A stretch of DNA of 64,000 nucleotides from positions 27,900,001-27,964,000 of the forward strand of contig CM114271.1 in assembly GCA_050084515.1 (NCBI GenBank). Direction: 5' to 3'. This document shows, in pieces, positions 21,447 to 61,700 of this stretch (its first letter is position 1; every line of letters begins with the position of its first letter). The notes beneath the pieces were generated by a model. That model had not been told where the DNA came from. It searched no databases and saw only the letters and a program-made list of their open reading frames with translations. The position numbers and the translations under genes were made by a program. The DNA is from Blasia pusilla. Lineage: Eukaryota.

Positions 21447-21644
<198 letters not shown>

Positions 21645-36200: not shown

Positions 36201-38473
36201 CCATCCAGACCAATAACTCGCTTTGGTGCCCTCTTTGGCCCTCAGTCCGGACGTAACTCAGGGTGCAAGCTGAAACACCTGGCACGTGTGCGATCGTACC
36301 TCTGACAATAGTCATACTGATAACCTCCTGGTGTAGCACCATCTCCTCCATCCTGAGGCACGCGACCATGATCATGACGAGTGCAATCGCGTTGATGATG
36401 AGCTCCACCACATGACCGACAAGTAATCGTAGGTGGTTGCTGCTGAGCCACATATGAAGATGCAGGTCTCCGTGGCACGGCCTCCTGGTATCCTCCCTGA
36501 CCTCGTGGTGCCACAGTTGACCTATCTCAGAGTCCACGTTGCTGGATTGGTGGTGCAGGAAATCGTGACTACTCTCGTCTAGAACCCATGTTGGCTACGC
36601 TCTCCTCCACCATGTTGTGGTCAATGTTCTCGGTGGTCCTAAAAATATCTCTCAACGTAGGGGAGGTGTTCATAAGAAGCGTCCCCCCCCCTCCTCCCCG
36701 CACCCGTGTCCACAGGGTCTGGCCCAGCATCGCGTACCATGAGTGGATAGCCTGAGCCTCTATCACCCCCTGAGTGACGTTGATCAACCGGTGCAAGCGA
36801 GTGTAAGCCTCACGCAAAATCTCACCCGAGTACCTCTGGAAGTCATGGATGCTCCGTAACTTCTCCGTCCGTACCCTCTGGTAGCTTGCCGCTCGTGGCC
36901 GTACGACACCATCTCGATCGCGGAGCCGCTCCTTCACTAAGGAGCATAGCGTGTGTATTGCTGATTGAGGAGAATATACCACGGCGTTTTGCATCCCTTT
37001 CCCTCGCTCGCATGATACTCGCTCATCATCAAGCGGCTACCAATCACAACATAGCAGAATAAAATGAAAATTCAAACACCATAACCCGAGATCACCTGCC
37101 ATCACTCGTTGATGATGAAACTGCGATGACGATAGCGGCCACAACAAAGTAGATGGTGGTAGCGCAAGTGAGAGAATCAACGGTCATTGTGGAAGACCGT
37201 CCACTTTAGAATGGTGGCAATGGAAACCAAAGGCGGATAACAGACGAATGCGGCTCTAAGCGGCGGTCGAAGGTCGACGGCGGACGGCGACGATAGACCA
37301 TTGACGGTGGGCCGTCGACAATGATGGTAAAGCGTCAATGGTTTGCCATTGACGGTGATGGTTGACTGTTGAAGGCGACGGCCACGTCCGGCGCGGCGGT
37401 TGGTTTAGGGTTTGAACAATTTTACCCTAAAAATCGCCTAACAATGGGAGTTTTGCAAAATTGGCCATAACTTTCTACTCGCAGCTCCAAATTGTGCACT
37501 CTCTGTTGCAAAACATGCACAACTTCACGATCTACGATGATGCTAAAAATTATTTTGAATTGGACCTTCCAATAAAAAACTGACATGGATTGTTGTAAAT
37601 CCCAATATCTCTTCTCCTACATAAATTTTGGCAACCCTTCCGCGCTGATTTCTCCCAACAAAAATGTAAAACCTATGAAAATACAAATCAGCAAGCTACA
37701 TGGTGGTCCCAAGAGTAGTGGCATGGGGCAACTTGTCCCCATACTCAATCCCTATAAAAAATTGGGCATCGATTGTGTGCGCCACTCTCACACACGAAAA
37801 ATCGACACACAAACGTCAAAACAACGCGGCTCTTGCTTCCGTGAGCACTCCCATGAGCCATGAAGTGGGGAACACGGTCCCCAACCTGCACCAAATATCA
37901 AGCAACCATCAAGCTCCCCCATGAAGCTCTCTCACCTTCTTATTGTCTTTTTGTAAAAATAAGGTGAAATCTCTCTTAACACCCTAGCTCTTTAATGTGT
38001 GCACTCTCACATGTCTGTCTCAATGTCCAACCAACCCACTCTCCTAATGAGAGGCTTGGGTTACACTCACAAGGCAAGCAAGACCATAGCTCCGCCACCT
38101 CCTGCCAAGAGGTTCAACAAAGAGAGAATGAGCTCTCAAGTTATCTCTCCTTGAGGTATATCCCTCCCCTCTCCCAAGCTCTTTCCATGGTAACATATGC
38201 TCCCAAGTCACCTCCTTGTCTCTTGACCTGATGTAGGAGGTCAAGGGCCACTTCCCAAAATATAAAATTGACCATATACTCAAAATGGTACTTACCTAAA
38301 ATAGAAGTTCATCAATATGGCTCCAAATGAGCCGAAACGAAGGGGAAACCTCCTCTCTCAGGGGAAACCTGCTTTCTCAGGTTTCCCCGGGCCTCAACAA
38401 GTCATCCTTGACCTCATGAGCCTGTCCTCCACTACTTGCGAGGCGCTCTACTAGATCTCACCGATCTATCATA
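33225..38473 (-). mobile_element. DNMT3/PHD gypsy family copy A, internally deleted (no MTase or RT) and 3'-truncated
   Basis: 5' LTR 37960-38473; gag remnant with CRSCGGAH and YCQRYDRTRARC knuckles; protease LLDSRAQP; protease joined directly to the RNase H tail near 34930; integrase core in ORF 33450..34154. Confidence 0.85.
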
Positions 38474-39321
38474 AAAGACGTGATACCTTACTTGCCTTCG
38501 TGTTCCATACTCCTCTATTTCTTCCTCCCTCCACCTCCACTCCCTCCTCCCTCATTGCTCCACTCATCCTTGCCTTGCCTTCCATCATGAACTATAAGTG
38601 TGGGTCCCATATCATAGAACCCATGTCCGTGGATATGTCAAGACTTGTCAGTCCATGTCTGTACTAAGGAAGGACTTGTCCGGTTTTGTGCAACCATGTC
38701 TGTCTTGGTATGTGTGAATGTCTCAAAGAGATATGCATTTACTCTTGGGATGAGATGCATAGCCTCTCACATCTAAATTCAATATAGAATTTCCATAACA
38801 AAGTGGGAAAGGGAGTGCCCAGAAACCCTATATATGTATAATCTTGTTGCGTGCATATATATTATTCATAACAGAAATATATGCTATCATCCATACAACA
38901 CATAAAACCCAAAAGCACACACAAATATGAAAACCAGATACATACACTATCATTTTTGAAACAAGACTCTCTCTCCCTCCTCTCTCTCTCTAAAATTGTT
39001 AAGATGGTCATACCAGAATTGTTCAACACATTCAATAGCCTTGATTCATTGCCCAAAGCTGTTGCATTGGTAAGTAATGTCTATTGAGGTTCCTAGTCAG
39101 GTAAAGTAGATGGTGTGATGAAGAGTTTCTTGGTTGACACTTGGAAGCTCCGCACGAAAATATTGTTTGGTCAGCACTCACACTATATGAGAGTGTCTCC
39201 CTCCTCTCATATGATATCTTATTCGCTTCTTCCTCTCTCTACACCCATCCCAGTCTCAAGCAGCGTCCAACCAGGGCGCAGGATCTATGGTTGCAAGACT
39301 ACAACAGACACTTTTTAATGA

Positions 39322-42287: not shown

Positions 42288-42532
42288 CCACCCACAAGCC
42301 GTTTAACTTCTACTTGTGCTATCCTCAAGGCTTGCTTACCCTTTTGGTTCATCCTTATTTCAATAAATGGTCCCTCCCTTTTCTCCTTAGATGTGTCTCA
42401 ATGCACAAGCATATCATGACTAGCCGTGACCTGAGGCACAATCTATGGCTCTTGGCCATCTTGGTTTATTCCCTAAACTTCTTGCTCATCTTGACCTTTC
42501 TTTAGCAAATCACTTCGAAGAGTCACATCTCT

Positions 42533-43030
42533 TAGGATAGATCGGTGAGATCTAGTAGAGCGCCTTTATGAGTAGCGGAGGACAACTCAATTGGCTGAGG
42601 ATGACCTGCTGAGGCCCCGGGAAACATGAGAGAGCAGGTTTCCCCTTCGTTTCGGCTCATTTGGAGCCATATTGAGGAACTTAATATTTTAGGTAAGTAC
42701 TATTTTGAGTATATGACCAAATTTCTATTTTTGGTAAGTGCCCTTGACCTCCTACATTAGGTCAAGAGCCAAGGAGATGACTTGGGAGCATAGGTTACCA
42801 TGGAGAGAGCTTGGGAGAGGGGAGGGGTATACCTCAAGGAGAGAGAGCTTGAGAGCTCATTCTCTTTTGTTGAACCTCTTGGCATGAAGTGGCGGAGCTA
42901 TGGTCTTGCTTGCCTTGTGTGTGTAACCCAAGCCTCTCATTAGGAGAGTGGGTTTGGTTTGACATTGAGAGACACAAGAGAGAGTGCACACATGTAGGAA
43001 CTATAGTGTTGTGAGAGAGATTTGATCTTA
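42533..43030 (+). repeat. ~500-bp LTR of the DNMT3-gypsy family (homologues at 37960-38473 and 50095-50589, both minus)
   Basis: Three copies share sequence from TA(A/G/T)GATAGATCGG to (GAT/CAC)CTTA. It lies upstream of gag in A and B and just downstream of the integrase-PHD stop in C1. Confidence 0.8.
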
Positions 43031-44776
43031 CTTAACAAAGAGAGAATGAGAGAGTGAGAGAGCTTCATGGGGGAACTTGCTAGTCACTCACTGTTTTTGC
43101 ACCTTGGGGACCGTGTTCCTTGTTCAACGGCTCATGGGAGTGCTCACCGGAGCAAGTGTTGCTTTGATTATTCTTTGCATTTGCCGATTTTTTGTATGGA
43201 AGAGTGGCGCGTGGAAGCGCTGCCCAATTTCTGATAGGGATTGATTATGGAGGCGGGTTGCCCAATGCCGCTGCTCTGGGCATAGCTTGTTGATTTGTAT
43301 TTTTATAGGTTTTACATTTTCGTTGGGAGAAATCAGCACGGAAGCGCTGCCAAATTTTGTGTAGGAGAAAGAGACATTGGGCTTTACAACAGTTATTGTC
43401 ATTTTTTACTAGAATGTTCGATTCTAAATAGTTTTTGACGTTATTGTAGATCGTGAAGTTGTGCACGCTATGCAACAAAAAATGCATAATTTGGAGTTGC
43501 GAGCAAAAAGTCATGGTCAATTTTGCAAAACTTCCATTTCCAGGCGAGTTTTAGGGTTAAATTGTTCAAACCCTAAATCGGCCGCCTAGCGGGCGGCGGT
43601 CGTCGCCGCCATAGTCACCGCAAATGGTTTGCCATCAACAATCAACCATCACCATCAACGGTCCACCATCCATTGTCCACCCTTTGGTTGTCATTGCCGC
43701 CATTACGGAGTGGAGGGTCTTCCACGACGTTCGTTGATTCTATGACTTGCCTTGCCACAACGTACTTTGTTTTGGCCGCCACCGTCATCGCAGTTTTGTC
43801 GTCAACAAATGATGGTAGATGACATCTGGTTATGGTGTTTGAGTTTTGATTTCATGCTGCTATGTTGTGATTGGTTTCCACTCGACGACAGTCAAGTACC
43901 GTGCCGTGACGCCCGTAGCCGCAACGCGCCGCCGATTGCTGCGCCGTGCCGCTCGTGGCCGCACCGCACCGTCTCGATCACGGAACCGCTCCTTCACTAA
44001 GGAGCAAAGCGTGCGAATTTTTGATTGAGGAGGGTATGTTGCCGAGTGCCGCATATTGAGGAGGGTATGCTTTCCGAGTGCCGTGCTGCTTGTAGCCGTT
44101 CCGTGCCGCCAGTGCCGCATTGGACCGCTCGACCTGCACCACACATCGAGGAGGTTGAGCAGCGTCAATACGAGAGGAGTACGACTTGCTTATTGGAGGA
44201 GATGTCTTCACGACCGAGTTGGGGTCAAGATTTGCAGTTGTCGAGGAGCGACATCGACATTATTGTGAGGTTATCCATTCTGCTCTTTTGACCTGCACGT
44301 GTGAGGGATTTCTGAATATTGGGAAGTTATTTGGGATATTGGGTTTCGTGTTGATGCTAGGAGCATCGATGATGTATGGGTTAAGGGGACATAGACCTGT
44401 GGGATGTCCAGAGTTGAGGATGGTTTGTCGATGAGACGATACATCAGTGATTTTCCGCACCACGCTGCTTGTTGCCACACAACACACGTCTTAGTGAGAG
44501 AGTGTAGATTGAGTGCCGCATGTTTAGTTTGCGTGATTGAGGGATTACTCGCAAGATTGAGAGTGATCATATGAGAGGGGCACAAGGGCCATCACGGCAT
44601 CCTTTTAGGATTTTGAGAGGCAAGGTAGTGGACCTGATGGTAGCTCTAGAGAGTTTACGCGGAGTGGTGCGGGGTTTCGAGGGTCTCCACGTGAGAGACC
44701 ACCTCGATCTCAATCTGTGTCGTCTTCAGACAAGGGGTAGCATATAGAGGAGTGTGTTAGTGATCCACCGTATACA

Positions 44777-45876
44777 TTGATTGGTCCTACCAGTTGGGCG
44801 TACAAGATGGATGACCAGGGTAGAAGACAACGTAGGTTTTTGGGTGTTGTAGGCACTATAGAGCTACACGACTTCATTGCGGAGTTTAGGAGTTGGTGTG
44901 ACTCACAGCGGGCGAGGAACTCTAGAGAGTTCAACCCATTTACAACATGGAATGATATGTTCCAGCATTTAGAGGGGATGCCCATGGGCAATTACCATGA
45001 GTTCTCCAACACATATGCCCAGGAGATTGAGGCATGGCGACTCTACTATGACCCACACTATGTGTCATGGACGGAGTCGTTCCCAGACGAGGAGGAGGAG
45101 TTAGGAAAGGCTACTTCCTCTTCCAATAGTGACGTTTTAGGAGGGGTCACTCGCACTAGAGCTATTGCACAATCTAGTCGGGTTCGTCCCATGTTCAACC
45201 CCATGGTTGAGTTCTCCGCCAAGTTGAGGGCCAGCTACCAAGGGGTACGGACAGAGAAGTTGCGGAGCATCCACGACTTCCAGAGGCACCCGGGTGAGAG
45301 TTTGCGTGAGGCTTACACTCACTTGCGTTGGTTGATCAACGTCACTCACGGGGTGACAGAGGCTCACGTTATCCAATCATGGTACGCGATGCTGGATCGG
45401 ACCATGTGGACACGTGTGCGGGAGGGGGTGCTTCTTATGAACACCTACCCTACGTTGAGAGATGTTTTTAGGACTGCCAAGAACATTGAGCACAACACGA
45501 CAGAGGAGAGCGTAGCCACCATGGGTTCTAGGCGAGAGCAGTCATGATTGTCTGCACCACCTGTGCAGCAACGTGGACTCCGAGATAGGTCGATTGTGGC
45601 ATCACGAGCTCAGGGAGGATATCAGAAGGCCGTGCCACAGAGACCTGCGCCTTCATACTTCATATGCGGCTCAGCACCAACCGCCTAATATTAGATGGTG
45701 CTGCACCAGGAGGTTATCAATGTGACTATTGTCACAGATATGGTCATACACGCGCTAGGTGTTTCAGTTTACATCCAGAGTTACGTACGGAACGAGGACC
45801 AGAGAGGGCACCAGAGCGAGTAGTCGGTCCGGGTGGGGCTAGAGGTCGTGCACCAGGTGGTCCCGTTGGGGGATGA
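44777..45876 (+). pseudogene. gag of copy B with CCHC knuckle
   Basis: ORF 44777..45547 (FIAEFRSWCD...FQRHPGESLREAYTHL) and CDYCHRYGHTRARC at ~45720. Confidence 0.75.
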
Positions 45877-46424
45877 GGAGCTGGAGTTTCCCGACAGGGT
45901 GGTGGAGCTGCCCGTGGAGGAGGTAGAGTCCCACCACCTAGACGTGTTGAGGGAGACGCCGGGCGTGAGGCTGGGATGGCTACTTAGATACAAAAACTAC
46001 AGGAGCAGATTGCCGCTATGGCATTGAGGTTACCCGATGCCGAATCCGTGGCATCAACATCATATGGAGTAGCCAAGGACATGGAGGATCCTCATTGGAT
46101 GTGCGGGGTTGCCCAAATGGAGGCCGCCGTAGTTGTGACACGTGGAGCATCTGCAGAGTGGGATCCACAACGAGGGGAAGCCAGGAAACAGACTAGGCTT
46201 CCTTAGTCTTTCACGTTGTCTGAGGCGATGAGGACCCCATCGATGTGTCCTCATCAAAGTTCTTGGAGAATTGGTGATGTTGTTGGTGTGTAGGCACGGA
46301 GGGAAATGGGAGAAGCAAGTGCGACGACTCCTATTGCTGATGCTCAGGAGGGGCATGTGTCGAGCACGTAGTTGGGGGCGGCCATCGTTGTGTACGCGCT
46401 TCTTTATTTTCTGCTTCCGATGTT

Positions 46425-47100
46425 ATGACGTTGGGAGGTACGCCCGCCGAGGTTTTTCGGCTGGCCACTACGCTATGTGAGCGTGGAGTTGGAGTTCCTT
46501 CATCACGTTCAGAGGTGATTGTAGAGGAGGTGATGGACCTGCCCTTGGAGCGGATGCTCAGGCCGTCCATGTCAGATTCATGGCAGGTTGCGGTTGCTAG
46601 GATGGCGGAGATGCCCGCTAGACCCGCTATAGAGCGTGCCATGGTTTCTCCTGGTGTTGTGTTGCTGGATAACCAGAGAGAGGTCTTCCAATTGGTGAGT
46701 CTCGGAGGTAGAGCTTTTAGTCGGCAACGCGTCTTGTTGGATTCAGGAGCGCAACCCCTGATGTTGGGTAAAGCGTCATTCAGAAGGATTGGGCTTGACG
46801 AGAGCCGATGTAGAGCGTTGTCCGTTCCAGATATAGATATCCTTGGGTGGAGCAAGAACCACATAGTATATCACCCGACAGGAGGTTGTGGTGAGGATTC
46901 GCCTAGGACATCCTACAGATGAATCCGTGGTGCGAGCCAAGACGATAGTGATTGATGCAGAGTCCTACAACGTCTTGGTCGGTGGAGCAATGTTATACCC
47001 GATGGGGTTTTCCTTGGATTACTAGGAGGAGTCAGCGTCCTACAGACTAGGATGGCAGTCAGGTGATGGGTGCCTTAGCTCATTACCCGTTTGATTCACA
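46425..47100 (+). pseudogene. Retroviral-type aspartic protease of copy B
   Basis: RVLLDSGAQPLMLGK...SYNVLVGGAMLY. Confidence 0.8.
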
Positions 47101-47449
47101 AGTGCAGTGATCGAGCAACGGCTAGGAGAGATGGTGACCTTAGCAGCATTTTGTAGTGCCATCACTTGGCCTAGTGATTTGATTGAGGGACATATCTATG
47201 CAGAGGATACTCCCATTCTTGACATTTCTATGGAGAGGAGTGTCATGGTAGCCGCATCAGTTTGTGGAGGAGAGGTGCCGCTTTGGGGCTCTACTGCGGA
47301 GCTTCGACGCTTAGCCACTGAGCATGTGCAGACCGCGTGGAGCGAGATATTTGCATTAGAATGTGATAGGTTAGAGGAACCCCAGGTAGGTAGGAGTGCT
47401 ACTAAGACCCCTTTGGACACCACCCCGATTGTGTGGTGCATCCTTGAGA

Positions 47450-48380
47450 AGGGTATTCGGATGTTGGATCTCTTTGGAGGGATCACCACTGTGTTAGCTG
47501 CTGTTTTGCACTCAAGAGTGTGTGTGCAGCAATATCTGTATGTGGAGATTGATGATGTTGCAAGGCGCGCTTTACTTCACCATGTGGCACTTTTACGCCT
47601 CTTTTTTCCCGACTTGTTGTCTACGTCCGCCATTAAGGCTAGAGTTCCCTACCTAGGGACATTTCATTGTTGGGGGCGCAGGACTTGGATCGGGTAGGGA
47701 CCATAAACTTGGTCATTGCTGGTTGGCCATGTCAGGGCCAATCGAGTGATGGACAAGGTAGCGGGTTAGCTGACACTCGCTCTAGGTTGTTTTGTGAAAT
47801 GATGCGGATCTTGCGACATTTACAAGAGCATCAGTCTCGTTCTCCAGCATATATTTTGGAGAATGTGACAATTTTGGGCAATTCGAGGTCCCACGTGGTG
47901 ACAAGTGCACATCAAGTGCGCGCAAGGATCGGCCCGGTAGTGTTGTTAGATGCAACGAGTGTGGGTTCACGAGCACATCGCCCATGTCTTTGGTGGACCA
48001 ACTTGGTACCACATGAGATATTGCGGAGGGTTTATGCGAGAGTGGAGCATCCCTTCGATTTGTTGGTAGATTCTATATTGGATCCAGGCCATCGATCACA
48101 GGCAGTGAGGCATGATGATCGACCGCCGTGGACTATGGTCAACAAGATTGGCATGCCACGAGCCGCCTTTCCCACATTGGTGAGTTTTTCCTATGCATTC
48201 AAGGAGGCCGGACTTGGCTTGGTTTGGGATGACCATGTACAGAGGTTGGTGGAGCCCAACGCCGATGAGCGAGAGCAAGCGATGGGATTCCCCATAGGAG
48301 TGACGGTAGTACCGTCACTATCCGAGACATCACGACGTCATGTCTTGGGTCAGGCGATGGACCTGAACTGCTTGACATAG
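47450..48380 (+). pseudogene. DNMT3-like C5 cytosine methyltransferase domain inside pol (copy B, one frameshift near 47640)
   Basis: Motifs in canonical order: I IRMLDLFGGI, II YLYVEID, III DIS, IV LVIAGWPCQG, V GLADTRSRLF, VI YILENV, VII LLDA, VIII RAHRPCLWWTNL, IX EREQAMGFP, X SRRHVLGQAMD. Confidence 0.92.
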
Positions 48381-48689
48381 ATTTTCAGCTTAGGAGTTGT
48401 TGAGCAGCGTCATTTGAGGATGCGACAGATCATAATTTTTGCATTGGTGAGCCCCATGCCTACCGAGATGGTTGAGGCAATGGCTGGGGGCGAGACCCGA
48501 GGAGATCGACACACCACGGGTGATCGAGAGAGACAACCTTGGATGTTTTGCAGATACGCCAAGAGATGATAGCCACAACATCGAGCGTGGTTCCGGGAAC
48601 TGCACGTGGAGATGGGAGTTCTATTGTTTAAGATAGGGTTGCACCATAGCAACCATCGACATCTACGCCGGAGAGTCCTATCGTAGTCA

Positions 48690-49962
48690 CGATGGAGACT
48701 TGGAAGCCAGATACGGACCCTAAGTTGACGGGAGGAGAGCGGCGTCGGATACACCAATTCCTTAGGAGTTATAGGAGCTGTTTTGCATTTAGTATGCATG
48801 ATTTGGATACATTGAAGGGTCCAGGGATCCGCATTGAGTTGTCGAGTGACACGCCAATCTTCCGACGACCCTACACAAACAATGACATGGAGAGGGCTCT
48901 GATTTAGAGTAGGAGCCAAGACTTGGTTGGAGCAGGACTAGTGGAGATGTTGCATGGAGAGTATGCATCTGCCATTGTCATGCCCGACAAGAAGGATGTG
49001 CATGGCAACTAGACGGATAGGCGAATGTGTGGAGATTACCGACCTATAAATTGGCAAACAAAGTCCGATATGTATGCCATGCCCACCCTTGAGGAGATCT
49101 TCGATGCAATTGGGCATGCAAAGGTCTTTAGTTCATTGGATTTGCGAGCCGGATACCTATCAGATTGGAGGACAGGCAGAAGAGGGCATTTTGGGGCATC
49201 AATCCTCATGGGAAGGATTGTTTGTACCAGTGGTCGTTCTTACCATTCGGGTTAAAGAACGCCCCGGCTGAGTTTCAGAGGGTCATGGATAGGATCTTGG
49301 TAGGTCTGGATTTTGCTAGGTGTTATATTGATGACATCATAGTCATTAGCGCTACGGTTGAGGAGCATGAGCGACATCTAGAGGAGGTATTTCGACAATT
49401 GCAGTTATATGGGCTAAAGCTATATCCAGGCAAGTGCAAGTTCTTCTACGACCAGATTGAGTACTTGGGTCATACAATATACCCTGGGGGCCTTGGTGTG
49501 CAACAGACAAAGGTAGAGGCTATTTCACGCATTCCACGCCCTACAGATGTGAGTCGAGTTCGTGCATTCATGGGATTGCCGAACTTCTATCGACGGTACC
49601 TCAAGGGTTTCAGTTCAATTGCGAAGCCGCTAACCTTGATGACCAAGGTGGATCAGGAGTGATACTCGGGGGATGAGCAAGAGAGAGCATTTCAGATGCT
49701 TAAGGACATATTGACGTCCGTACGCATATTGAGGAGACCGATCAGGGGTCGTCCTTTCTAGTTGCATACAAATTGGAGCATGTTGGGGCATCGAGCCATG
49801 CTCACCTAGCATGATGATGATGGTAGAGAGTTTGTGGTGGCTTATGCTAGTCACTCGAACAATGCTGCAGAGGCGAAGTATAGCTTGTATGAGGATGAGT
49901 GCTTGGCTGCAGTGTGGGCTGTCGCACATTTCAGATGTTATCTATTCGGCAATCCCTTTACC
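48690..49962 (+). pseudogene. RT and RNase H of copy B
   Basis: RMCGDYRPIN, FSSLDLRAGY, LPFGLKNAPAEFQRVMD, CYIDDIIV, IEYLGH, VVAYASHSN, ECLAAVWAVAHFRCYLFG; several premature stops. Confidence 0.9.
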
Positions 49963-50619
49963 ATGTTGTGCGCATACACATTGCTACACAACATACATCG
50001 TTGTCATCGAACACACACACAAACACACACAATCCCATGCTAACTCATGGCATCCATAGACAGAGGCGAGAAGTACCAAATATCTCCAAAATAATAAGAT
50101 CCAATCTCTCTCACAACACCATAGTTCTCACATATGTCCACTCTCACATGTCTGTCTCAATGTCAAACCAAACCCACTCTCCTAATGAGAGGCTTGGGTT
50201 ACACACACAAGGCAAGACCATAGCTCTGCCGCCTCATGCTAAGAGGTTCAACAAAGAGAGAATGAGCTCTCAAGCTCTCTCTCTTGGAGGTATACCCCCT
50301 TCCCTCTCCCAAGCCCTCTCAACGATAACATATGCTCGTAGGTCATCTCCTTGGCTCTTGACCTGCTGTAGCGGGTCAAGGGCCACTTCCCAAAGTGGAA
50401 ATTCAACTATCCCCAATATGGAAACTTACCCCAAATAGTAAGTTTTCTATATGGCTCCAAATAAGCCGAAACGAAGGGGAAACCTGCTCTCTCAGCTTTC
50501 CCAGGGCCTCAACAGGTCATCCTCGACCTCTTGGGCATGTCCTCCACTACTCGTGCAGACGCTTTGCTAGATCCCACCGATCTATCTTAATCCGAATCAA
50601 AATCTACCTAGTATCTCCT

Positions 50620-50760
50620 CTATATACATCTGAGACACATCCATCGTCCCCGAGGAATCCTAGTAAGAGGTGGCGTCAAACATGCCATATGCCAACCTCT
50701 CAAACATCCATCATAGACTAGCATCGTGGCCGCACCATGAGTAGAACCACACAACATACA
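50620..50760 (-). pseudogene. PHD finger at the integrase C-terminus
   Basis: CMLCGSTHGAATMLVYDGCLRGWHMACLTPPLTRIPRGRWMCLRC* (C4HC3 with one C>Y). Confidence 0.88.
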
Positions 50761-52153
50761 ACGCAAGCCTGCAGGAACTACTGTTGAGCTTGGATCTGCT
50801 GTACCATCAATGTTAGGAAGATGACATGGCGCACAATTACGCACATGGTCCTTCCATACCATACCATTGCGTCTCTCCAGGAAGAGAACACCGGATGGCA
50901 AAACGTCGCGCACTCTCAAGATAGTGCACCCTGCAGTCACATCCAACGTCGTCGGTGCCGTCTGCTACAAGTAGACATAATCTCCCTGATGAAACCTCCA
51001 AATAGTTGGTCGATAATCACCACCCGAATAGTCGCATACCTCAACGTATCCCGATGTTGCGCAATCGCCAAGTTCTCGAACGCAATGGGCATCACTCTCC
51101 AAAATAACTCCGCCCTTTGAGAACATGCTCGCATACATACATCTGGGTCATCAAGGTTGTCGCGCCCCTACTCTCCTTGAACGTCAATCTTTAGTGTTGC
51201 GGAAGCGTGCGTTCAGTAGGTCACGAACTCATCGCCGATCTGCACCCAAACACGCACTCTCGTTAGTCGGGTTTGGCCAACCGGTGTTCCAACCCACCGA
51301 GTCCTAAACTCGGCGTCTCATCAAGCTCAACCTTCCTTAGTTCCTAGCTCCCAACACATGGCAAGTCCTTCAAGACTTGGACGGACTTCTGGTTAGTCCA
51401 GGGGATCTCAAACGGCACTTGCACGCCTAGCGATCCCAACTGTTCAACGGTCCTCGTGTGAGTTCCGAACCGAGACCCAAGTAATTGAGTCGTGGCGTGA
51501 AATCCAAGAGGGATGTCTAAAATCGACTCAATGGACTTGGTGCAGGTTTTCCAACCCAACGCCCAAACTCGCGTTCCGTTCCATGCCCTTGAGCGCCCAT
51601 GGCGCCCAAAGTGGGGTTTGGGTTCCAAGCACTCTCGGAGACCTTCCCCTTACTAGTACTTCTGGGGTTCTCCAATAACCCCTCCCCTTTGGGAAAAGAG
51701 GTTCGGGCCCTTCATTGTGGCCCTCAACCCGACACCACTTACAGTCGTTTTGGGTTGTATCTCGGCCGCTGCTTATGCGTTTGCAGCGATCTTTAGTGCG
51801 TTTTGACCGGCTCTCCATAAGCTTTCCAACGCATCCTTATTTGCTCCAAACGCATCTTGGTACTAAAAGTTATGGCTAGAAATACAGTCAGAAACTCTCA
51901 AACGCAAGTGGCGTTCCAAATCCGGATCTTTCCTTTGGCAACCCACTTCCTAGACTCGACTTCTTTCAAGTCTCATTCGCGTTTGGTCCAGGTTTTTGAG
52001 TTGCGACCATCACATCTGAAACGCGACTTTCGCTCGCGTCTCGTCTCTTGTCTCCTCTTTGAGACAACTCCAACGCAAGAAACCATCTTAGCGTGAGTCC
52101 GCTAATGTTCCGATGTTCCGCTTGGCACTTGTTTGGTCATGAGGGTCGCGACA

Positions 52154-52167
52154 CTCACCCCTCTTTT
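52154..52167 (-). other. Polypurine tract of the chromovirus
   Basis: AAAAGAGGGGTGAG immediately before the 3' LTR. Confidence 0.85.
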
Positions 52168-52844
52168 AGAGTTTGATGCCCTCATCAACGCAAACCTTTA
52201 TTATGTCAAGTCTCCTGGGCAGCCTACCCCTTGACATTGAATTGCGTTCTGGTGGCTAACCCGCAATTCCTCTTAGTCTTTAGTTGTCGCTTTGCCCCAC
52301 TTAGAATTATTAGCCTCTCATCTTCGATAAGCCTGGACTAGTTCCAAGGAACTAACCTATCAAATAAGCTAACTAAGTGTGCAACCTTAGACTCTTTCGA
52401 CTCATTACTGTAAACATCACACCTGTTTACCTGGTCCACAAATCGTACTACTATTGGGTCGCTCTCGTATTCGACTTAGGCGCGTCACTAAGTTTACTTA
52501 TGTGGCCACAAGTAAGATCACCCCAAGCCCCAAGACAGACTTCATCTGCCCCGCCGACGCTAGGGCGAGCCCGAGTGTAATCCAACACAAGGTCCTGTTC
52601 TAGGTGCTTATCCACATACGAGCTCTCACCTCAAATACTCCTTGTCTGTCTTCTTGTCGTACATTCTAAGTCTATGATGAACGACTCATAGCCATGCACT
52701 ACCACATACAAATTGCAATCAACACTGGTATCGAATCTCCAAATCCATACACTCCTTTATTGCAACACTAGCATATTCTAGTTACAACGGCCTTCGGCCC
52801 AAGATTCCAGTGATTACAAGTCATGTCTCTAGCTTCTCCTCATA

Positions 52845-53270
52845 CTAACGTATGTGCTTCGCTTGTGTTCGCTTGAAGTCACACAACAACTCTTGCGCGT
52901 GTTCCAAATCCGCCTCCGCAATCCAAGTCGCCTCCTTCACATGGTAGCCCTTCCATTTTACCAAGTATTCATACTTGTTGGCCCGACGCCTCGAACGTAA
53001 GATGGTCTCCACCTCGAACTCCGGCTCCTCATTTACGATGACCAGGTGCGGTCTCACCACCTGTCTCCGCTCGAAACGTCCATTATCTTGAAGGTATTTC
53101 TTCAATAATGACACATGAAAGGTTGGGTGAATCTTGAACTCGTCCGGCAGCCTCAACGTATACACATCCTCAAACGGGTTTGCCACAATCACATACGGTC
53201 CAGCATACTTGGCAGACAACTTAGTAGACAACTCTTTCGGAAGAGTGAGATTCTTCACACTCAACCACAC
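52845..53270 (-). CDS. Integrase GPY/F module and chromodomain of the chromovirus
   Basis: KLSAKYAGPY...IHPTFHVSLLK...EFEVETILRSRRR...YLVKWKGY...ATWIAEADL. Confidence 0.9.
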   Translation of the reverse strand: MWLSVKNLTLPKELSTKLSAKYAGPYVIVANPFEDVYTLRLPDEFKIHPTFHVSLLKKYLQDNGRFERRQVVRPHLVIVNEEPEFEVETILRSRRRANKYEYLVKWKGYHVKEATWIAEADLEHAQELLCDFKRTQAKHIR

Positions 53271-53299
53271 TTGTTCTCCGACTTGAATCGATTTTGGCG

Positions 53300-56200
53300 C
53301 CGACTCTTGTTAGCATGCTTCACGTACCTCATTTGAGCCTTTGCAAGACTTAGCCTCGCGCTCACTTCTCGTTCTCGCATCTCTACCAACAAACTTTCTA
53401 CCGCCGCTTGTCGTGTTCGTGCCAATGTAGTACCCTTCGAAGGGCTAGATCAAGAGGCCCTTCGGCTCTCGTCCATTTGCCAGGAGAAACGGAGATTCTC
53501 CTATTGCGAATGCTTGGTCGAGTTGTAGCAAAGATTCCGCCATGCTCGACCACTTGACCCAATCGCGTTGATCAAGACGACATAATTCCTCAAATCTTGA
53601 TTCACGATAGAGTTTACCTTTTCGATCTGTCCATCCGTCGTGGGTGGAAAGCCGTCATGAAACTCAGCTTGGTCTTAAACCTTCAACAAGTGCTTCGAAA
53701 AGCATGGTAAACTTTGGATCCCGATCTGAAACAATGCTCCTCGGCAAACCATGAGCACGCCACCACTATCGAGGAATAGTTCGCGTCAGATACGCCGTTC
53801 ATGGAATCCACCGTCGGCACGAATCTCACCAACTTGCTAAACCGATCAACAATCACAAGTATAGCGTTGTATCCCAGATTCGGAAGACTCGTGATAAAAT
53901 CCATACTCACACTTTGCAAGGGTCCTTCGGGATCGGCAAGGGATGCAACAAGCCCTGTTTCTTATCATAAGAGACTCTATTCGCTAAGGAGTCACATGGT
54001 CTTCACATATTGAGCAACATCCTCCTTCATAATGGGCCAAAAGAACCGCCGACAGAACACCTAGCGAGATTTCTCTCCTTTATGTCCGCCAAGGGCCCGT
54101 CGTGACATTCCGCTAACACCTTGGTTCGATTCCCGCCTTGCCCTACATAGATCCTACTCTGTTTGAACCTTAGTAAACCGTGCCTCAAACTTATGTTGGC
54201 CACCTTCTCAACCCCGCTTCAACTTCCTCGGTATTCCCTCGCTTGAGCATCCTTCATATATCCTTCACGAATCCTTCTCTCCGGATGTGTTTCCTTAGGG
54301 AACATTGCTCTCAAAACTGTGTCGTCGATGGCATGTGTTCCTCCTTGCGACTTAACGATCTGGAATCACATTATCTTTACCTGGCTTGTGGATCAACTCT
54401 ACATCCATCAGCAAGGTATCATGCCACCATGATTGTTTTGGTGTCACTCGATCCTCGGTCTCAAAATACTTGAGTGATATATTATCGGTGAATACTCGAG
54501 TCTGTGGAGCCCTAGATAATGCCGCCACTTCCTCAAGCAATGTACCACCGCATGAACAACTCTTTTCGTGAGTAGGCCATCTCCTTTCAGATCGCTAAGC
54601 TTCTTGCTCTCATATGCCACCGGTCTTCCTTCTTGCACCAACATTCCTGCAACCGCGAAATCACTAGCATCGGTATGCACTTCGAACGGTTTGTCAAACT
54701 TCGGCACCTTTAACACTAATTCCTGCGATAGAATCTGCTTCACTCGGGTTGAATGCCTCATTAACTTCCTGGGTCCAAGTCGTGTTGGCAAACTTTGCCG
54801 TCCAATCCGTGAGAGGTCTCACAATTCCCGAAAAGTTTTTTACATAAGTACGGTAAAATTGCACAGCACCTATGAACCTCCTCATCCCCTTTACAGTGGA
54901 TGGGGGTTCCCACTCGGAAATCGCTTTTACCTTTTCCATGTGTGGACTGACGCCATCTGCACTGACCACGTGACCCAAGAATTTGATCTTACTCAAACCA
55001 AATTCGCTCTTCTCTACATTTGCATACAGCTGATTTGCCCTTAGCTTAGACAAGACCGCTCTCACATGTCGAACGTGCTCCTCTAGTGACTTCGAATAGA
55101 TAAGTATATCATCGATATAGATGATAACATACTCATCCATTTCCTTGTGAAAAATGGAGTTCATCAATGTGGTGAACGTCGGAGGCGCGTTACATAGACC
55201 GAAAGGCATCACTACAAACTCAAAGGAACCGTATCTCGTCCTGCACGCAGTCTTCTCACATCTGCCTCGGCAATCCAAATCTGGTAATATCCTGACTTCA
55301 AGTCAATCCTACTGAAATATCTCGCGCCTGCCAGCCTATCAAAGAGATTATCTATCCTTAGAAGAGGATAATTGTTCCGAACCACCACTTTGTTCAATGC
55401 ATGGTAATCAACACACAGCCTCATCTTTCCATCCTTCTTCTTTACAAAGAGAACAGGTGCTCCATAAGGTGACTTGCTAGTCCTAATGTAACCCTTTTCC
55501 AAGAGCTCACTTAACTGCTTTTTCAACTCAAGAAGTTCCTCCTGATTCAACCTATATGGTGCTTTTGAAGGCGGTTGGGAACCGGGTATGATCTCTATCT
55601 TATGATCTACGGCTCTATGCGGCGGCAATTCAGTCGGAAGCTCATTTGTCAAGACATCCTCAAACTCCTTGACCACTTCCTGGAGTGGTTCTGGGATTCC
55701 CCTTGAAGCAGCGTCCTGATCTCTGCGTATACTGCTTGTAGCCTCCTCCACTTGTCTCATCAAGCAGAGAAATCCATCCTCCAACTCAGTCATGCTCCTC
55801 CTTGTGATCGAGTTCACCAACTCCATCTTCGCTGGAACCTCACGGACCAACCGCACTCAGAATCGTTTGCCTTTTAGCAAGACGCTCAACCTCAATGGTC
55901 GGGCGTCTTAACTCCACCTCATACGCATCTAGGAATGTATTCCCCAAAACTCCGTCAATGCCGTCCATTTATACATCTGTGAAATTCTCCTTCAACTCGA
56001 ATACCCGCATCCCCTCTTGTCAAACCCAAGACCAAATCAGAAGTCCGATGAGACTTGCCTCCTGCAAATCCCACTCGATGGGCTCGTCCGCCTTAGAGGT
56101 AGATGCCCCAGTTCCTTCACGATTCTCGGGCTTAGGAAGGAGTGCGGCACTGTATCCACGAGCAACAACACATCGCGATCAGCAATCTTGGATCTTAGGT

Positions 56201-57345
56201 ACACCAAATTGTGCGCCCTCTTGGTGACTTGAAGGGACGTCTCCATATCGCCCGCCAACAGATGCTTAGCAGCAAACGCAATCATACTCCCATTACTAAC
56301 CTTCGGTTTCAAACACCCTTTCGACAGGTGACCCGGTTCGCCATAGTTGTAGCATACGACCTTGCCGTTCCCTGTCTTTGAGTGTTGTCCTCCTTTCGGC
56401 CGCATGAAGTTCCACTCGTTTCTTTGCCTGCCGGCATTTACGACTCCTGGTTCGTGTTGGCCCCCACTCCGCCTCTTTTGAACGCCTCCTTATTTTTCGA
56501 CTTCTTCGAAAAAACTTTTGACTCGAAGGGTTTCTGGGTTTGGACCTCATCGTCCCCAATCCGCTCCGCTAGATTCAGAAGGTCCGCACAGGTCTCTGGC
56601 AACGTCGGCATTCGGTAAAGGGCCTTCTCAGCGCTCGGCTTGAGTCCACTAATGAAGATAGCCTTCTTCGCGTGCTCATCCATCTTCGGACTAGAAGTCG
56701 GGCCGCACTAAACTCCCTCACATACGCGCTTAAGGAACCACTCTGCCGCATCCGCACGCATTCCACCGTGTCACGCAACCCTTGGTACTCCGGAGTGAAC
56801 CAATCCCCAATCAACTTCTTGAACTCCTCCCAACTCAGAGGTGACTCACCGCCCAAATATTCCTCTCGTTGAGCGGTCCACCATTGCAGAGCATGATCCT
56901 TAAGGAAAGTAACGGCTACCGTCACCTTGTCCTGCTCAGCAGCCTTCTGCGCCTTGAAGTACAGTTCCAGTTCCGTAAGGAAATCCTTCACTTTCCGCGA
57001 GCGCCCCACTCCAGTAAATGGCGTGGGCAGGTTCGTCTTGCAGAGCTTTTTGCCCGCACTCGGGTTTCGAGTGGCCTCTAACTCCGCAATCCGCTTGCTT
57101 TGCTGGGACATCTGCTCCACCAACACCTTCAACAAGTCCAACGTCTGGCTCGACTCCGTCCTTTCCCCTGAGTTTGGGCCCACTGGCCCCGCGGAAGGAG
57201 TCGCCACTGGGACGTCCTCACGACTGGCGTTCAGCTCTTCGGGAGTCTCCGACTCCTCTATAGCTTCACGGTCCGGCATTGGTTCCTCTCTCGGTTCACG
57301 TCGCTTGATTCGGCGCTTCTTGGGTTGTTCTCCCTCGATCGCCAT
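53300..57345 (-). pseudogene. gag-pol of the chromovirus, frameshifted
   Basis: Gag ORF 56575..57351, CYNYGEPGH knuckle, LLVDT protease, [41 protein letters not shown]. Confidence 0.9.
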
Positions 57346-57480
57346 CTCCAAGCCAACTCACTCAGATCTCCTCCTCGTTTCTTGCGTCCCTCCTTGAGCG
57401 TCCGAGTCTAGCCGCTACCTTGAAATTTCCCAAGCATCCGGCTGATCCCACGACCCCAAGTTGTCGCTCACCAAGGATAA

Positions 57481-57492
57481 GCTCTGATACCA
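57481..57492 (-). other. Primer binding site (initiator tRNA-Met) of the chromovirus
   Basis: TGGTATCAGAGC 2 nt inside the 5' LTR boundary. Confidence 0.92.
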
Positions 57493-58543
57493 CTTGTCGC
57501 GCCCCTACTCTCCTTGAACGTCAATCTTTAGTGTTGCGGAAGCGTGCGTTTAGTAGGTCACGAACTCATCGCCGATCTGCACTTAAACACACACTCTCGT
57601 TAGTCAGGTTTGGCCAACCGGCGTTCCAACCCACCGAGTCCTAAACTCGACGTCTCATCAAGCTCAACCTTCCTTAGTTCCTAGCTCCCAACACATGGCA
57701 AGTCCTTCAAGACTTGGAACAGACTTCCTGGTTAGTCCAGGGATCTGAAACGGCACTTGCACGCCTAGCGATCCCAACTGTTCAACGGTCCTCGTGTGAG
57801 TTCCGAACCGAGACCCAAGTAATTGAGTCGTGGCGTGAAATCCAAGAGGGATGTCTAAAATCGACTCAATGGACTTGGTGCAGGTTTTCCAACCCAACGC
57901 CCAAACTCGCGTTCCGTTCCATGCCCTTGATCCGCCCCGCGGCGCCCAAAGTGGGGTTTGGGTTCCAAGCACTCTTGGAGACCTTCCCCCTTACTAGTAC
58001 TTCTGGGGTTCTCCAATAACCCCTCCCCTTTGGGAAAAGAGGTTCGGGCCCTTCATTGTGGCCCTCAACCCGACACCACTTACAGTCGTTTTCGGGTTGT
58101 ATCTCGGCCGCTGCTTATGCGTTTGCAGCGATCTTTAGTGCGTTTTGACCGGCTCTCCATAAGCTTTCCAACGCATCCTTATTTGCTCCAAACGCATCTT
58201 GGTACTAAAAGTTATGGCTAGAAATACAGTCAGAAACTCTCAAACGCAAGTGGCGTTCCAAATCCGGATCTTTCCTTTGGCAACCCACTTCCTAGACTCG
58301 ACTTCTTTCAAGTCTCATTCCGCGTTTGGTCCAGGTTTCTGAGTTGCGACCATCACATCTGAAACGCGACTTCTCGCTCGCGTCTCGTCTCTTGTCTCCT
58401 CTTTGAGACAACTCCAACGCGCAAACCATCTTAGCATGAGCCCGCTAATGTTCCGATGTTCCGCTTGGCACTTGTTTGGTCATGAGGGTCGCGACAAAGG
58501 TCCTGCATCTCACCAACATCTCGATGAATGGCCGCAGGTAAAT

Positions 58544-58730
58544 CTTAGCAATAGTCCTTGCAGGCTTGCGGTGTATGTTGTGTGGTTCCGCTTGTGGTGC
58601 AGCCACTATACTAGTCTGTGATGGGTGTTTGAGAGGATGGCATATGGCATATTTGACACCACCTCTCACTAGGGTTCCTCAAGGATGATGGATGTGTCCC
58701 AGATATACATAGAGTAGGTAGTTCTACATT
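58544..58730 (+). pseudogene. Inverted second copy of the integrase PHD finger
   Basis: Plus strand LRCMLCGSACGAATILVCDGCLRGWHMAYLTPPLTRVPQG*WMCPRY lies between two minus-strand integrase segments. Confidence 0.85.
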
Positions 58731-61700
58731 CCAAGTTCTCGAATGCCATGGGCATCACTCTCCGAAACAACTGAGCCTATGGAGAACATGCTCGCATCCA
58801 TACATTTGGGTCATCAAGGTCCAGCACCTCACCAACATCTCGACGAATGGCTGTAGGTAAATCTAGCTCTCGGCCATAAAGTAGCAAGTACGGTGAAAAT
58901 TACGCTAAGGATGCCTTCTTGCTGAATCTGTATCCCATCGCCAACTACCGCAACTGGAGGTCCCAATCTCCTAGGTGACCTCTCTGCAAGCCATACTTGC
59001 ATAAACCCCTCTTCACCGTTTGCACAACTCTCTCGGCTAATCCATTCGCCTCGGGATGATCTCGCAAAGTTGTGCGGTGGTCGATCAGTGCCTGATTACA
59101 CAAGGCCTGGAACTCACTGCGAAATTTGCTACCTTGGTCTGTCAACACCTCAACCGGTGCACCATAATGACTCAGCACTCTGTCAAGGAAGGCATAAGCC
59201 ACTCCCTCACTTGCTTTGTCAGGCAATGCTACCAACTCGATCCACTTCGAGAAGTACTCGACCATCACCAACACATAACGATTGTGATCCTCCGTCAAAG
59301 GCAAAGGTCTGGCAAAATCCAAACCCCATCTATACCCTAAGCCCATGATTGGTAATGGATGCAATTGTGGAGTCGGAGCATTGAACGATGCTCAGACCCG
59401 ATCACACACCATGCACCTGGCAATAAATTGCTGAACGTCAGTCTGCATGCCTCACCACCAATACTGAATCTGGAGCAAGTTGTACGTCCACTTCATCCCA
59501 AAGTGACCCAACTCCTTGTGGGCATGTTGCAGTAGATGTGCTCTTTGTGAAGGATGCGGCACTACGCATACTCTACCATCCTCCGAAACCCTCAAAACAT
59601 GTGTCCCCTCCCAACGGAACCGTCTGGCCCGCTGTAGGATCTGATCCCGCTCTCTAGCATCCACGGTGCTCGCAACGCTGCTAGTACGAAGGTACTCCAA
59701 GACTACTCCATCATCATGAATATCTCGGCCACCTATCGTCTCTTCAGTGGCCTCGGGATCCAAGGACTCTCCACTAGACCTCGCCATCGAAGTCTCCACA
59801 CTTTGGCTCTCCAAAGCCAACATGCCTAAATAGGCTGACGCGTGCCATCCTGGCACTGACTCCTCATCACTCTCTCCATGCCATCGAGCTCTAGTCGCAT
59901 CTCGCTGACTCGGGCATGGGTTACGACTCAACCCATCTGCATCCTGGTTGAGCGTCCCAGGTCTATGTACCACATGAAAATCATACTCCTGCAACAACAG
60001 AGCCCATCTCGAAAGCTTCCCTGTAAGCTTGTCGGACTCCATCAACCACTTCAGTGGTTGATGATCAATGAAGATGGTAAAGGGATTTCCGAATAACTAA
60101 CACCTAAAATGTGTGACAGCCCACACTTCAGCCATGCACTCATCCTCATACGAGTTGTACTTCATCTCTGCAGCGTTGTTCGAGGGGCTAGCGTAAGCCA
60201 CCAGGAACTCTCTACCCTCATCATCATGTTGGGTGAGCACCGCTCCAAGCCCTAACATGCTCCAATCTGTGTGCAACTGGAAAGGAAGCCCCCTCATCGG
60301 TCTCCTTAATATGGGCGCGGACGTCAACCTGTCCTTGAGCATCTAAAATGCTTGCTCGTGCTCATCCCCCTAGTGCCACTCGTGATCCACCTTGGTTAGC
60401 AAGGTTAGCGGCTTCTCAATCGAACTGAATCCCTTGACGTATCGCCGATAGAAGTGTGCCAATCCCATGAATGCACGAACATGGCTCACATCTATAGGGC
60501 GTGGAATGCGTCAGATAGCCTCTGCCTTCGTTTGCTGAACACCAAGGCCCCCTGGATATATCGTATGACCCAAGTACTCAATCTAGTCGTAGAAGAACTT
60601 GCACTTGCTTGGATGTAGCTTCAGCCCATGTAATTGCAATCGTCGAAACACCTCCTCTAGATGTCGCTCATGCTCCTCAACCGTGGCGCTAATGACTACG
60701 ATGTCATCAATATAACACCTAGAAAAATCCAGAACAGCCAAGATCCTATCCATGACCCTCTGAAACTCAGCCCGAGCGTTCTTTAATCCAAATGGTAAGA
60801 ACCGCCAATGGTACAAACAATCCTTCCCGTGAGGATCCATGCCCCAAAATACCGTCTTCTACCTATCCTCCAATCTGATAGGTAGCTGATGGTATCCAAC
60901 TCGCAAATCCAATGAACTGAAGACTTTTGTGTGACCAATCGCATCAAAGATCTCGTGAGGGATGGGCATGGCAGACCTATCGGACTTCGTCTACCGATTG
61001 ATAGGTCGGTAATCCCCACACATCCGCCTATCCGTCCAGTTGCCATGCACATCCTTCTTGGCACGCATGACAGTGGCAGATGCATACTCTCCATGCGACA
61101 TCTCCACTTGTCTTGCTCCGACCAAGTCATGGCTCCTACTCTGAATCAGAGCCCTCTCCATATCACTGTACCTGTAGGGTTGTTGGAAGATCCGCGTATC
61201 ACTCAACAACTCAATGCGCATCCCCGGTCCCTTCAGCATACCCAAATCCTCCATGCTAAAAGCAAAGCAACTCCTATAACTCTTGAGGAACTGATGTATC
61301 CGGCGCCGCTCTCCTCCTTTCAACTTAGGGCCCATATATGGCTCCCAAGTCTCCATCGTGACTACGATAGGACTCTCTGGCATGGGTATCGGTGGTTGCT
61401 ATGGTGCAACCTTGTCTCGAACAACAACACTTGGCCGCTCTCCTACAGCCAACTGCAAACTCTGATCTCCTCCACGTGCAGTGCCCAGAACGATGCTCGA
61501 TGCTGTGGCTATCATCTCCTGGCGTACATGCAAAACATCCCAAGAAGTCCAAGGGTATCTCTCTTGATCTCCCCTAGTGTGTAGATCTCCTCGGGTCTCG
61601 CCCCCGGCCAGTGACTCCACCGTCTCGGTAGGCATGGGGCTCACCAACGCAACCGTTGTGATCAGTCGCGATCTCATACGGCGCTGCTCATCCACTCCCA

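Follow-up and report, generated by a model that had tools for sequence, protein, structure and literature searches.

Does a plant retrotransposon family carry a DNA methyltransferase of its own as a working part of its polyprotein, or is the methyltransferase-like sequence beside its reverse transcriptase (RT) debris in a nest of repeats? This question is raised by 64,000 nucleotides of Blasia pusilla DNA (assembly GCA_050084515.1, contig CM114271.1, positions 27,900,001 to 27,964,000, forward strand), the whole of which is termed the window here. One Ty3/gypsy long terminal repeat (LTR) retrotransposon family is represented in it by four decayed pieces, A, B, C and D, of which A and B carry a cytosine methyltransferase domain. 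Cytosine methylation is the main route by which plants silence transposons, and a transposon bringing its own de novo methyltransferase reverses this usual picture. An earlier inspection of the letters alone (the sequence-only reading) had proposed a DNMT3-like enzyme inside pol. The results described below make it highly likely that a Ty3/gypsy family with a DNMT3-like methyltransferase in its Gag-Pol polyprotein, between protease and RT, explains the locus as a whole.

Motif positions were obtained by three-frame translation and pattern searches, by which six motifs (I, IV, VI, VIII, IX and X) were checked (Table 1). They span 47467-48368 on the plus strand in copy A and 61723-62608 on the minus strand in copy B, fitting both coordinate ranges proposed earlier, and follow an identical canonical order in the two copies. 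The HMMER alignment to DNMT3A is colinear from motif I to motif VIII; motifs IX-X follow in order as a separate, weak segment (i-Evalue 0.75). The sequence-only reading had counted all ten motifs; six were recovered by pattern and the overall order holds. The intact catalytic PCQ that it reported is present in the copy at 47450-48380 and has been lost from the other. In copy A, the domain contains one frame break near 47640 and one stop directly after motif X. The open reading frame (ORF) 47643-48380 passes the Pfam model PF00145, the check suggested at the outset, with an E-value of 5.9e-10 and 39.5 bits against a gathering cut-off of 22; the remaining three of the four ORF fragments of the two domains, one N-terminal in copy A and two in copy B, had no Pfam match at E ≤ 0.01. 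With the protease DSG signature upstream and the RT match of copy A beginning at 48701, the domain lies between the two, and the spacings given earlier, some 400 bp from the protease domain and some 300 bp to RT, proved correct.

The window's right-hand third is a jumble of LTR-retrotransposon fragments and contains at least one nested insertion, a setting that would suit an artefact: a host DNMT3 fragment or separate insertion lodged in one copy, or an assembly chimera. This is extremely improbable, given that the domain has the same position and direction in two diverged copies, that coding continues from protease through the domain and towards RT on one strand without added repeats, that the same order occurs in single ORFs of other organisms, and that no PWWP or ADD domains of host type lie alongside. 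In the databases, 36 proteins have the domain downstream of protease or gag and upstream of RT. Furthermore, uninterrupted gag-pol ORFs of 2138-2327 residues exist, and all four that were tested carry methyltransferase, RT, RNase H and integrase in order. Two of them (P0093 and P0270) show a CCHC knuckle at 530-547, protease at 796-888, DNMT at 978-1226, RT at 1421-1575, RNase H at 1638-1766 and integrase at 1895-2061; P0281 has a protease match and no CCHC match, and P0275 a CCHC match and no protease match. Reader domains of the PWWP or ADD type were not found by Pfam in P0005, P0007, P0093, P0270, P0281 or P0275. Altogether, the domain belongs to a replicating lineage, as had been concluded earlier from its recurrence in a second copy, and the full order of the family is gag (CCHC), protease, DNMT, RT, RNase H, integrase and PHD finger. 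Membership in Ty3/gypsy follows from the Pol order of protease, RT, RNase H and integrase together with the RT_RNaseH and H2C2 integrase domains found.

Sequence and model comparisons support a DNMT3-like, not a DRM-like, domain, the assignment first made from motif order. When the Marchantia protein P0005 was compared with PDB sequences by phmmer, DNMT3A (1.7e-8), DNMT3B (1.9e-7) and also DNMT3C came ahead of HaeIII (1e-3) and tobacco DRM (2.6e-3). A profile built from 12 domains returned DNMT3A at 1e-21 (80 bits), DNMT3C at 3.7e-20 and DNMT3B at 1.1e-19, as against 4.4e-10 (42 bits) for tobacco DRM, 3.5e-8 for DRM2, 4.3e-8 for HaeIII, 2.4e-7 for HhaI and 2e-5 for DNMT2; no chain named DNMT1 appeared at E ≤ 0.01 in this search of PDB sequences. 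Profile positions 86-211 (motifs I-IV) align with positions 228-347 of the DRM chain, which form its C-terminal part, and such a pairing of the DRM C-terminal part with the N-terminal motifs of the domain is what a permutation confined to DRM would produce. An AlphaFold model of P0002, made from the 12-domain alignment, reached a mean predicted local distance difference test (pLDDT) score of 62, with a core mostly above 80. All matches listed by Foldseek for this model were DNMT3A or DNMT3B (E of about 1e-14 to 6e-13, target template-modelling score 0.35-0.69), and this fold evidence carries moderate weight because of the model's mean pLDDT. The human and mouse DNMT3A, DNMT3B and DNMT3C structures are thus the closest solved relatives by both sequence and fold, and share the motif order. 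The host enzymes differ in possessing PWWP and ADD readers, which were not found in the polyproteins here, and in a motif VIII-IX stretch about 30 residues shorter (about 82 residues in copy A against about 50 in DNMT3A, the latter figure read off the alignment); unlike host DNMT3, the present domain is intron-free and embedded in a polyprotein. The plant host enzyme MpDNMT3b is the subject of a preprint whose available text concerns the host gene only (bioRxiv 10.1101/2021.02.12.428880).

The lineage is widespread. A word-indexed search of 1412 candidates yielded 52 longer relatives (E ≤ 1e-3), with Calypogeia fissa (65% identity) and many Marchantia polymorpha gene models at the top. With a HMMER profile run against 1.84 billion cluster representatives, 13785 proteins were matched at E ≤ 1e-3 (a figure that probably includes ordinary C5 methylases), 2433 at 1e-10 and 530 at 1e-30; the best 150 matches all lie below 1e-72 and are all of transposon type. 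A protein atlas search yielded generic clusters of short, phage-type C5 methylases and nothing else, and these were disregarded. Relatives at E ≤ 1e-20 number 361, and among 120 of these the named carriers include the liverworts Marchantia polymorpha, M. paleacea, Riccia sorocarpa and Calypogeia fissa. The window's type is also carried by the mosses Sphagnum fallax, S. troendelagicum and S. tenellum, and by strains of Closterium (Zygnematophyceae). No vascular plant is named among the best 120 of the 361 relatives, which is not proof of absence. The window family itself is absent from the protein collections searched, where no protein is more than 65% identical in the domain, 74% in RT or 73% in integrase. 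A land-plant setting, suggested earlier from neighbouring genes, is supported through the named liverwort and Sphagnum relatives and not through host genes: Pfam revealed no conserved gene of the host in the window and, in 10 further ORFs, recovered PIF1 helicase, PHD finger and chromovirus domains only.

The enzyme might nevertheless be a passenger, captured once, functionless and decaying neutrally. Such an origin would suit the broken state of copies A and B, the loss of the catalytic Cys in B, the standing of the domain as the most diverged part between A and B, and the dip in read depth over it. It is contradicted by the selection test, in which substitutions between A and B were counted in the frames given by tblastn for this one copy pair, with differences listed by codon position 1/2/3. 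For the C-terminal part of the methyltransferase (231 codons; 30/24/78), the nonsynonymous rate (dN) was 0.109 and the synonymous rate (dS) 0.736, a dN/dS of 0.15 with 78 of 132 differences at third positions; for the N-terminal part (107 codons; 21/21/35) the values were 0.207, 0.647 and 0.32. The first part of RT (133 codons; 8/21/28) gave 0.111, 0.372 and 0.30, and the second part of RT with RNase H (249 codons; 24/24/52) gave 0.100, 0.349 and 0.29. In the C-terminal part of gag (86 codons; 9/8/10) the figures were 0.103, 0.144 and 0.72, and in the N-terminal part of protease (114 codons; 13/10/8) 0.096, 0.099 and 0.96. The two methyltransferase ratios are not near one, so that the dN/dS check proposed with the sequence-only reading came out, for the one pair, on the side of constraint. 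In addition, of the 48 database sequences that fall on the same side of the domain tree as the window, 46 keep the catalytic Cys (41 with PC and 5 with EC at motif IV) and 42 keep ENV, the domain persists across Closterium, liverworts and Sphagnum, and the intact polyproteins cited above retain it. A neutral passenger is accordingly very unlikely. While the element replicated, the domain was constrained at least as much as RT, as measured on this pair.

The same comparison records an uneven history along the element. Identity between A and B is 75-79% in the domain and 84-92% in the flanks, and dN in the methyltransferase is not above the neutral drift in gag and protease. Gag and protease of A and B shared a recent common ancestor and then drifted neutrally by about 10%; the split in their methyltransferase and RT is far older and took place under purifying selection. 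Since synonymous divergence changes along the pair, being lowest for gag and protease (0.10-0.14), intermediate for RT and RNase H (0.35-0.37) and highest for the methyltransferase (0.65-0.74), the element is a mosaic, for which recombination between sub-lineages of the family would be the simplest account. The possibility that A and B are arms of one recent inverted duplication was rejected in view of the 75-92% identity and the dS of 0.10-0.74 along the element. The ratio of observed to expected CpG is 0.67-0.71 in copies A, B and C and 0.92-1.00 in an unrelated chromovirus of the window. Copy A has A/T at 326 places where at least one fifth of the DNA reads have G/C, and the reverse at 112. 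Both the low CpG and the A/T excess fit decay of methylated cytosines.

Sequencing reads of the source species bear on whether other members persist. One DNA run (about 1% of the run) and three RNA runs were mapped to 44000-50000 at a likeness of at least 88%. In the run index, the best-matching DNA runs share 0.24-0.27 of the words and no RNA run is listed; runs with a small share, one of them an air metagenome, were left aside. DNA depth was 980-1920 in protease and RT, as against 240-630 in the domain, which marks the family as highly repeated. Likeness to the window copy is 88-95% for nearly all reads, which come from other members, and at the frame-break sites of copy A those reads carry an insertion or deletion relative to it; at 46784, in the protease, this is true of the majority of DNA reads. 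Read loose ends at 49964, where copy A is truncated (49964-49967), indicate that other members continue beyond this point. In all three RNA runs the first mate on the minus strand dominates (35-65 against 0-10 in the protease region, 41-94 against 0.7-9.6 in RT and 0.4-10 against 0-0.5 in the domain), an excess that indicates sense-strand RNA of the element, given the usual stranded libraries. The dip in DNA depth agrees with the higher divergence of the domain and would also agree with many members having none. Among the joints listed (40 more lie beyond the listing), no well-supported one skips the whole domain. Of the three refuting conditions named with the sequence-only reading that concern the biology, none overturns it outright, and the one on absence of the methyltransferase from most family members is answered in part: the domain sits at the same place in A and B and in the 36 database proteins, and within the source species the dip leaves room for members that lack it.

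Domain orders were typed in 213 proteins by phmmer, with domain queries cut from relatives. Two orders were distinguished: that of the window (gag, protease, DNMT, RT, RNase H, integrase) and a commoner one (RT, RNase H, DNMT, integrase, PHD), complete in 41 of the 213 proteins and partial in many more. The sole named carrier of the second order is a 'pol' of the chlorophyte Scenedesmus sp. PABB004, the rest being metagenomic or EukProt records. A search with a methyltransferase of this order (P0041, residues 780-1110) returned 63 proteins, all from metagenomes or EukProt. These algal and metagenomic elements share with the window family the methyltransferase clade and the integrase-plus-PHD tail, which is common to both orders; they differ in having the domain between RNase H and integrase, and not between protease and RT. 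As an observation in its own right, the elements with methyltransferase after RNase H, then integrase and a PHD finger, form a very large, mostly metagenomic clade (P0041-P0268). No paper on elements of this order was found.

The domain tree included 176 of the 210 profile-matching proteins, 34 being excluded for not spanning the region from before motif IV to motif X; its rows comprise 36 of the window's order, 99 of the other and 41 untyped. In this FastTree reconstruction (unrooted, no bootstrap), one branch with Shimodaira-Hasegawa-like support of 99 parts all 36 from all 99, and the window domain is sister to a group of Calypogeia, Marchantia and three other proteins. Agreement with the domain tree is weak for integrase, where a branch supported at 16 sets the window's type apart. 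In the RT-RNase H tree, for which a single nested chromovirus RT was the outgroup, two changes are needed and the starred branches force one. The simplest reading suggested by these trees is one relocation of the methyltransferase module within one element lineage. A more far-reaching scenario, in which the lineage with the module moved from behind RNase H to between protease and RT was inherited from the common ancestor of Zygnematophyceae and land plants, was not lost on the way to land, and is still high-copy and transcribed in bryophytes, appears possible at best.

In live members, the enzyme would be made within Gag-Pol and would enter the virus-like particle with RT and integrase, where it would be either released by protease or left joined to RT. 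It is probably an active S-adenosylmethionine-dependent DNA cytosine methyltransferase. It could then act on the element's own new complementary DNA (cDNA) or on DNA of the insertion site, so that the methylation state would be set at birth. This last step is put forward tentatively; the same idea has been proposed for algal and dinoflagellate elements (de Mendoza et al., 2018; PMC5890265). Alternatively, the enzyme may be real and active with another target: host chromatin near insertions, reached through the integrase PHD finger, or mimicry of gene-body methylation, or a role against DNA viruses. A PHD finger does follow integrase in the family (PF00628, E 1.8e-8), as it does in the 41 of 213 proteins complete for the other order, and an antiviral role for transposon-borne methylases has been voiced as speculation (Morozov et al., 2019; PMC6338049). 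Purifying selection indicates that the domain matters to the element and is silent on its substrate. On architecture, the cDNA would be the nearest substrate, since the enzyme shares a polyprotein and a particle with RT. The results do not tell the substrates apart, and a target other than the element's own cDNA is possible, with odds close to those of cDNA or insertion site.

Several points weigh against a methyltransferase-bearing family of this kind as the explanation of the locus, or temper it. Copies A and B are both dead, with frame breaks and stops in each as noted earlier, and the window copies make no enzyme. The PF00145 match in the window ORF is partial, covering profile positions 49-120 of 324. 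Confidence in the AlphaFold model is moderate, 146 of its 472 residues having a pLDDT under 50, and the label 'DNMT3-like' comes from comparisons with solved structures (PDB). Enzyme activity and target are predictions for every member of this lineage. At 88% likeness, the domain reaches about 15-35% of the read depth of its flanks. Finally, copy C has no methyltransferase domain, although RT was lost along with it.

The architecture of the family was pieced together from the four copies (Table 1). The 5' LTR region of copy A at 42523-43607 matches 38483-37374 (the 5' LTR of copy C) at 81%, inverted, and its 42532-43030 matches 50590-50095 (the LTR start of fragment D) at 84%, also inverted. 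Marchantia P0005 aligns to gag of copy A (residues 12-306 to 44831-45670, 44% identity) and to its methyltransferase (residues 946-1236 to 47646-48512, 62%). In copy B, P0007 residues 691-1190 match 61362-59590 at 59% and P0039 residues 1106-1239 match 59382-58981 at 74%; the segment 46750-47297 of copy A has no counterpart there. In copy C, the match to P0005 residues 658-757 ends at 34939 and that to P0007 residues 1043-1190 begins at 34928, so that methyltransferase, RT and most of RNase H were removed together in a single internal deletion. Copy C is a non-autonomous derivative in which gag, protease and integrase are kept. It was considered as an ancestral methyltransferase-free form and rejected as such, since RT and most of RNase H are gone too and it is a deletion derivative. 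Fragment D matches copy C over 50787-51158 (33227-33599, 84%), its 50090-50590 matches the copy C LTR, and the fragment also matches P0041 residues 1513-1650. The same LTR start is found upstream of gag in copies A and C and directly after the PHD finger in fragment D. The terminal repeats look like ordinary direct LTRs, each window copy being incomplete and none having both ends.

Table 1. Coordinates of motifs and element pieces in the window.
Feature	Coordinates	Strand	Remarks
Copy A, motif I	47467-47490	+	DLFGGITT
Copy A, motif IV	47721-47738	+	GWPCQG
Copy A, motif VI	47853-47867	+	ILENV
Copy A, motif VIII	47967-48005	+	SRAHRPCLWWTNL
Copy A, motif IX	48252-48293	+	EPNADEREQAMGFP
Copy A, motif X	48342-48368	+	VLGQAMDLN
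Copy B, motif I	62585-62608	-	
Copy B, motif IV	62334-62351	-	GWP*QG, stop replaces catalytic Cys
Copy B, motif VI	62205-62219	-	
Copy B, motif VIII	62067-62105	-	
Copy B, motif IX	61798-61839	-	
Copy B, motif X	61723-61749	-	
Copy A, 5' LTR and leader	42523-43900	+	start well defined, end approximate
Copy A, gag with C-x2-C-x4-H-x4-C zinc knuckle, decayed	44741-45876	+	ORF 45589-45876 contains CDYCHRYGHTRARC
Copy A, aspartic protease	46341-47030	+	DSG 46734-46748; frame break near 46784
Copy A, DNMT3-like C5 cytosine methyltransferase domain	47401-48380	+	motifs I-X canonical, catalytic Cys kept
Copy A, RT and first part of RNase H	48650-49964	+	PF00078, E 1.3e-22 on 49132-49662
Copy B, methyltransferase domain	61723-62650	-	catalytic Cys codon is a stop; two frame breaks, at least 10 stops
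Copy B, RT, RNase H, integrase (zinc-binding domain and core)	58731-61400	-	PF17917, PF17921, PF00665
Copy B, protease remnant and part of gag	62775-64000	-	DSG 62775-62789; extends past window end
Copy C, 5' LTR, gag, protease, then directly RNase H end and integrase	33227-38483	-	
Fragment D, integrase C-terminal part, PHD finger, first 500 bp of LTR	50090-51158	-	PHD finger at about 50620-50790

Other features were recorded around these pieces. The family integrase ends in a PHD finger and not in a chromodomain. A second PHD segment (58541-58720, 84% identical to 50620-50790) lies inverted beside the end of copy B, which lacks about 280 bp of its integrase C-terminus; this arrangement looks like a local inversion with deletion. 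Between D and B, on the minus strand, lies the unrelated Ty3/gypsy chromovirus (51157-58496) with RT, integrase, SH3_Tf2-1 and chromodomain. Its LTRs of about 1 kb (51157-52153 and 57494-58496) are 95-100% identical, and it is clearly younger than its surroundings. A PIF1-like helicase fragment at 19647-20225 on the minus strand (PF05970, E 5.9e-21) is possibly part of a Helitron. A long CT/GA dinucleotide repeat at about 21300-21740 appears as SLSL... and RERE... ORFs on both strands, and the first 2000 positions of the window have a G+C content of 27%, as against 40-54% elsewhere in it. Cys/His-rich ORFs at 25025-25828 on the plus strand show a weak PHD-type match (PF23011, E 8e-4, below cut-off), and may belong to a host gene or to some other element.

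The closest described system is KnitGypsy-Dnmt3 of Klebsormidium nitens, in which a DNMT3-type domain lies in a Gypsy-type Pol (de Mendoza et al., 2018, Nat Commun 9:1341; PMC5890265). Compared on their descriptions, the two share an unpermuted DNMT3-type domain, retention of key catalytic residues, a streptophyte host and purifying selection, with Ka/Ks below 0.2 given in that paper for the Klebsormidium element and 0.15 obtained here. They differ in that KnitGypsy-Dnmt3 is described there with a DIRS-like repeat arrangement and the window family has seemingly ordinary direct LTRs (no copy being complete), and in that the relatives of the window family belong to liverworts, Sphagnum and Closterium; no Klebsormidium sequence appears by name among the relatives listed. 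SymbioDIRS-Dnmt3 and SymbioLINE-DNMT of Symbiodinium, reported in the same paper, likewise combine a cytosine methyltransferase with a retrotransposon; unlike the window family, they have a DIRS backbone with tyrosine recombinase or a LINE backbone and a host of another kingdom. According to the portions of that paper available, these Symbiodinium elements are treated as independent acquisitions and the DIRS form coexists in two domain orders, and its abstract states that retrotransposon DNMTs can methylate CG de novo (PMC5890265).

In the available text of the same paper, KnitGypsy-Dnmt3 is placed in Klebsormidium only and Marchantia goes unmentioned. Two later texts that cite it use the wording 'streptophytes' in the parts accessible (PMC12344493; bioRxiv 10.64898/2026.05.21.726589), the accessible parts of two others contain nothing on methyltransferase-bearing elements in land plants (bioRxiv 10.1101/363937; PMC13398078), and one paper, in its available portion, states that land plants are without such elements. 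A search of the full-text literature, to which subscription journals, figures and supplements did not belong, found no description of them in bryophytes or other land plants. The sole described streptophyte case is the alga Klebsormidium. Public gene models of Marchantia, Riccia, Calypogeia and Sphagnum with the domain, some in protease-DNMT-RT order, are labelled 'hypothetical protein', and the sequences of the lineage are therefore already public and unremarked. The novelty proposed by the sequence-only reading holds insofar as no land-plant description was found, and is reduced by a kind known since 2018 and by these public bryophyte models. The window family is a land-plant branch of the known Gypsy-DNMT3 kind, with a domain order that is possibly new.

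If live members do make an active enzyme, land-plant genomes would contain a transposon-encoded source of de novo cytosine methylation, and such an enzyme could affect both the fate of the elements themselves and the methylome of their host. Marchantia, as a tractable model with naturally intact copies, would allow what a transposon gains from methylating DNA to be tested in a land plant.

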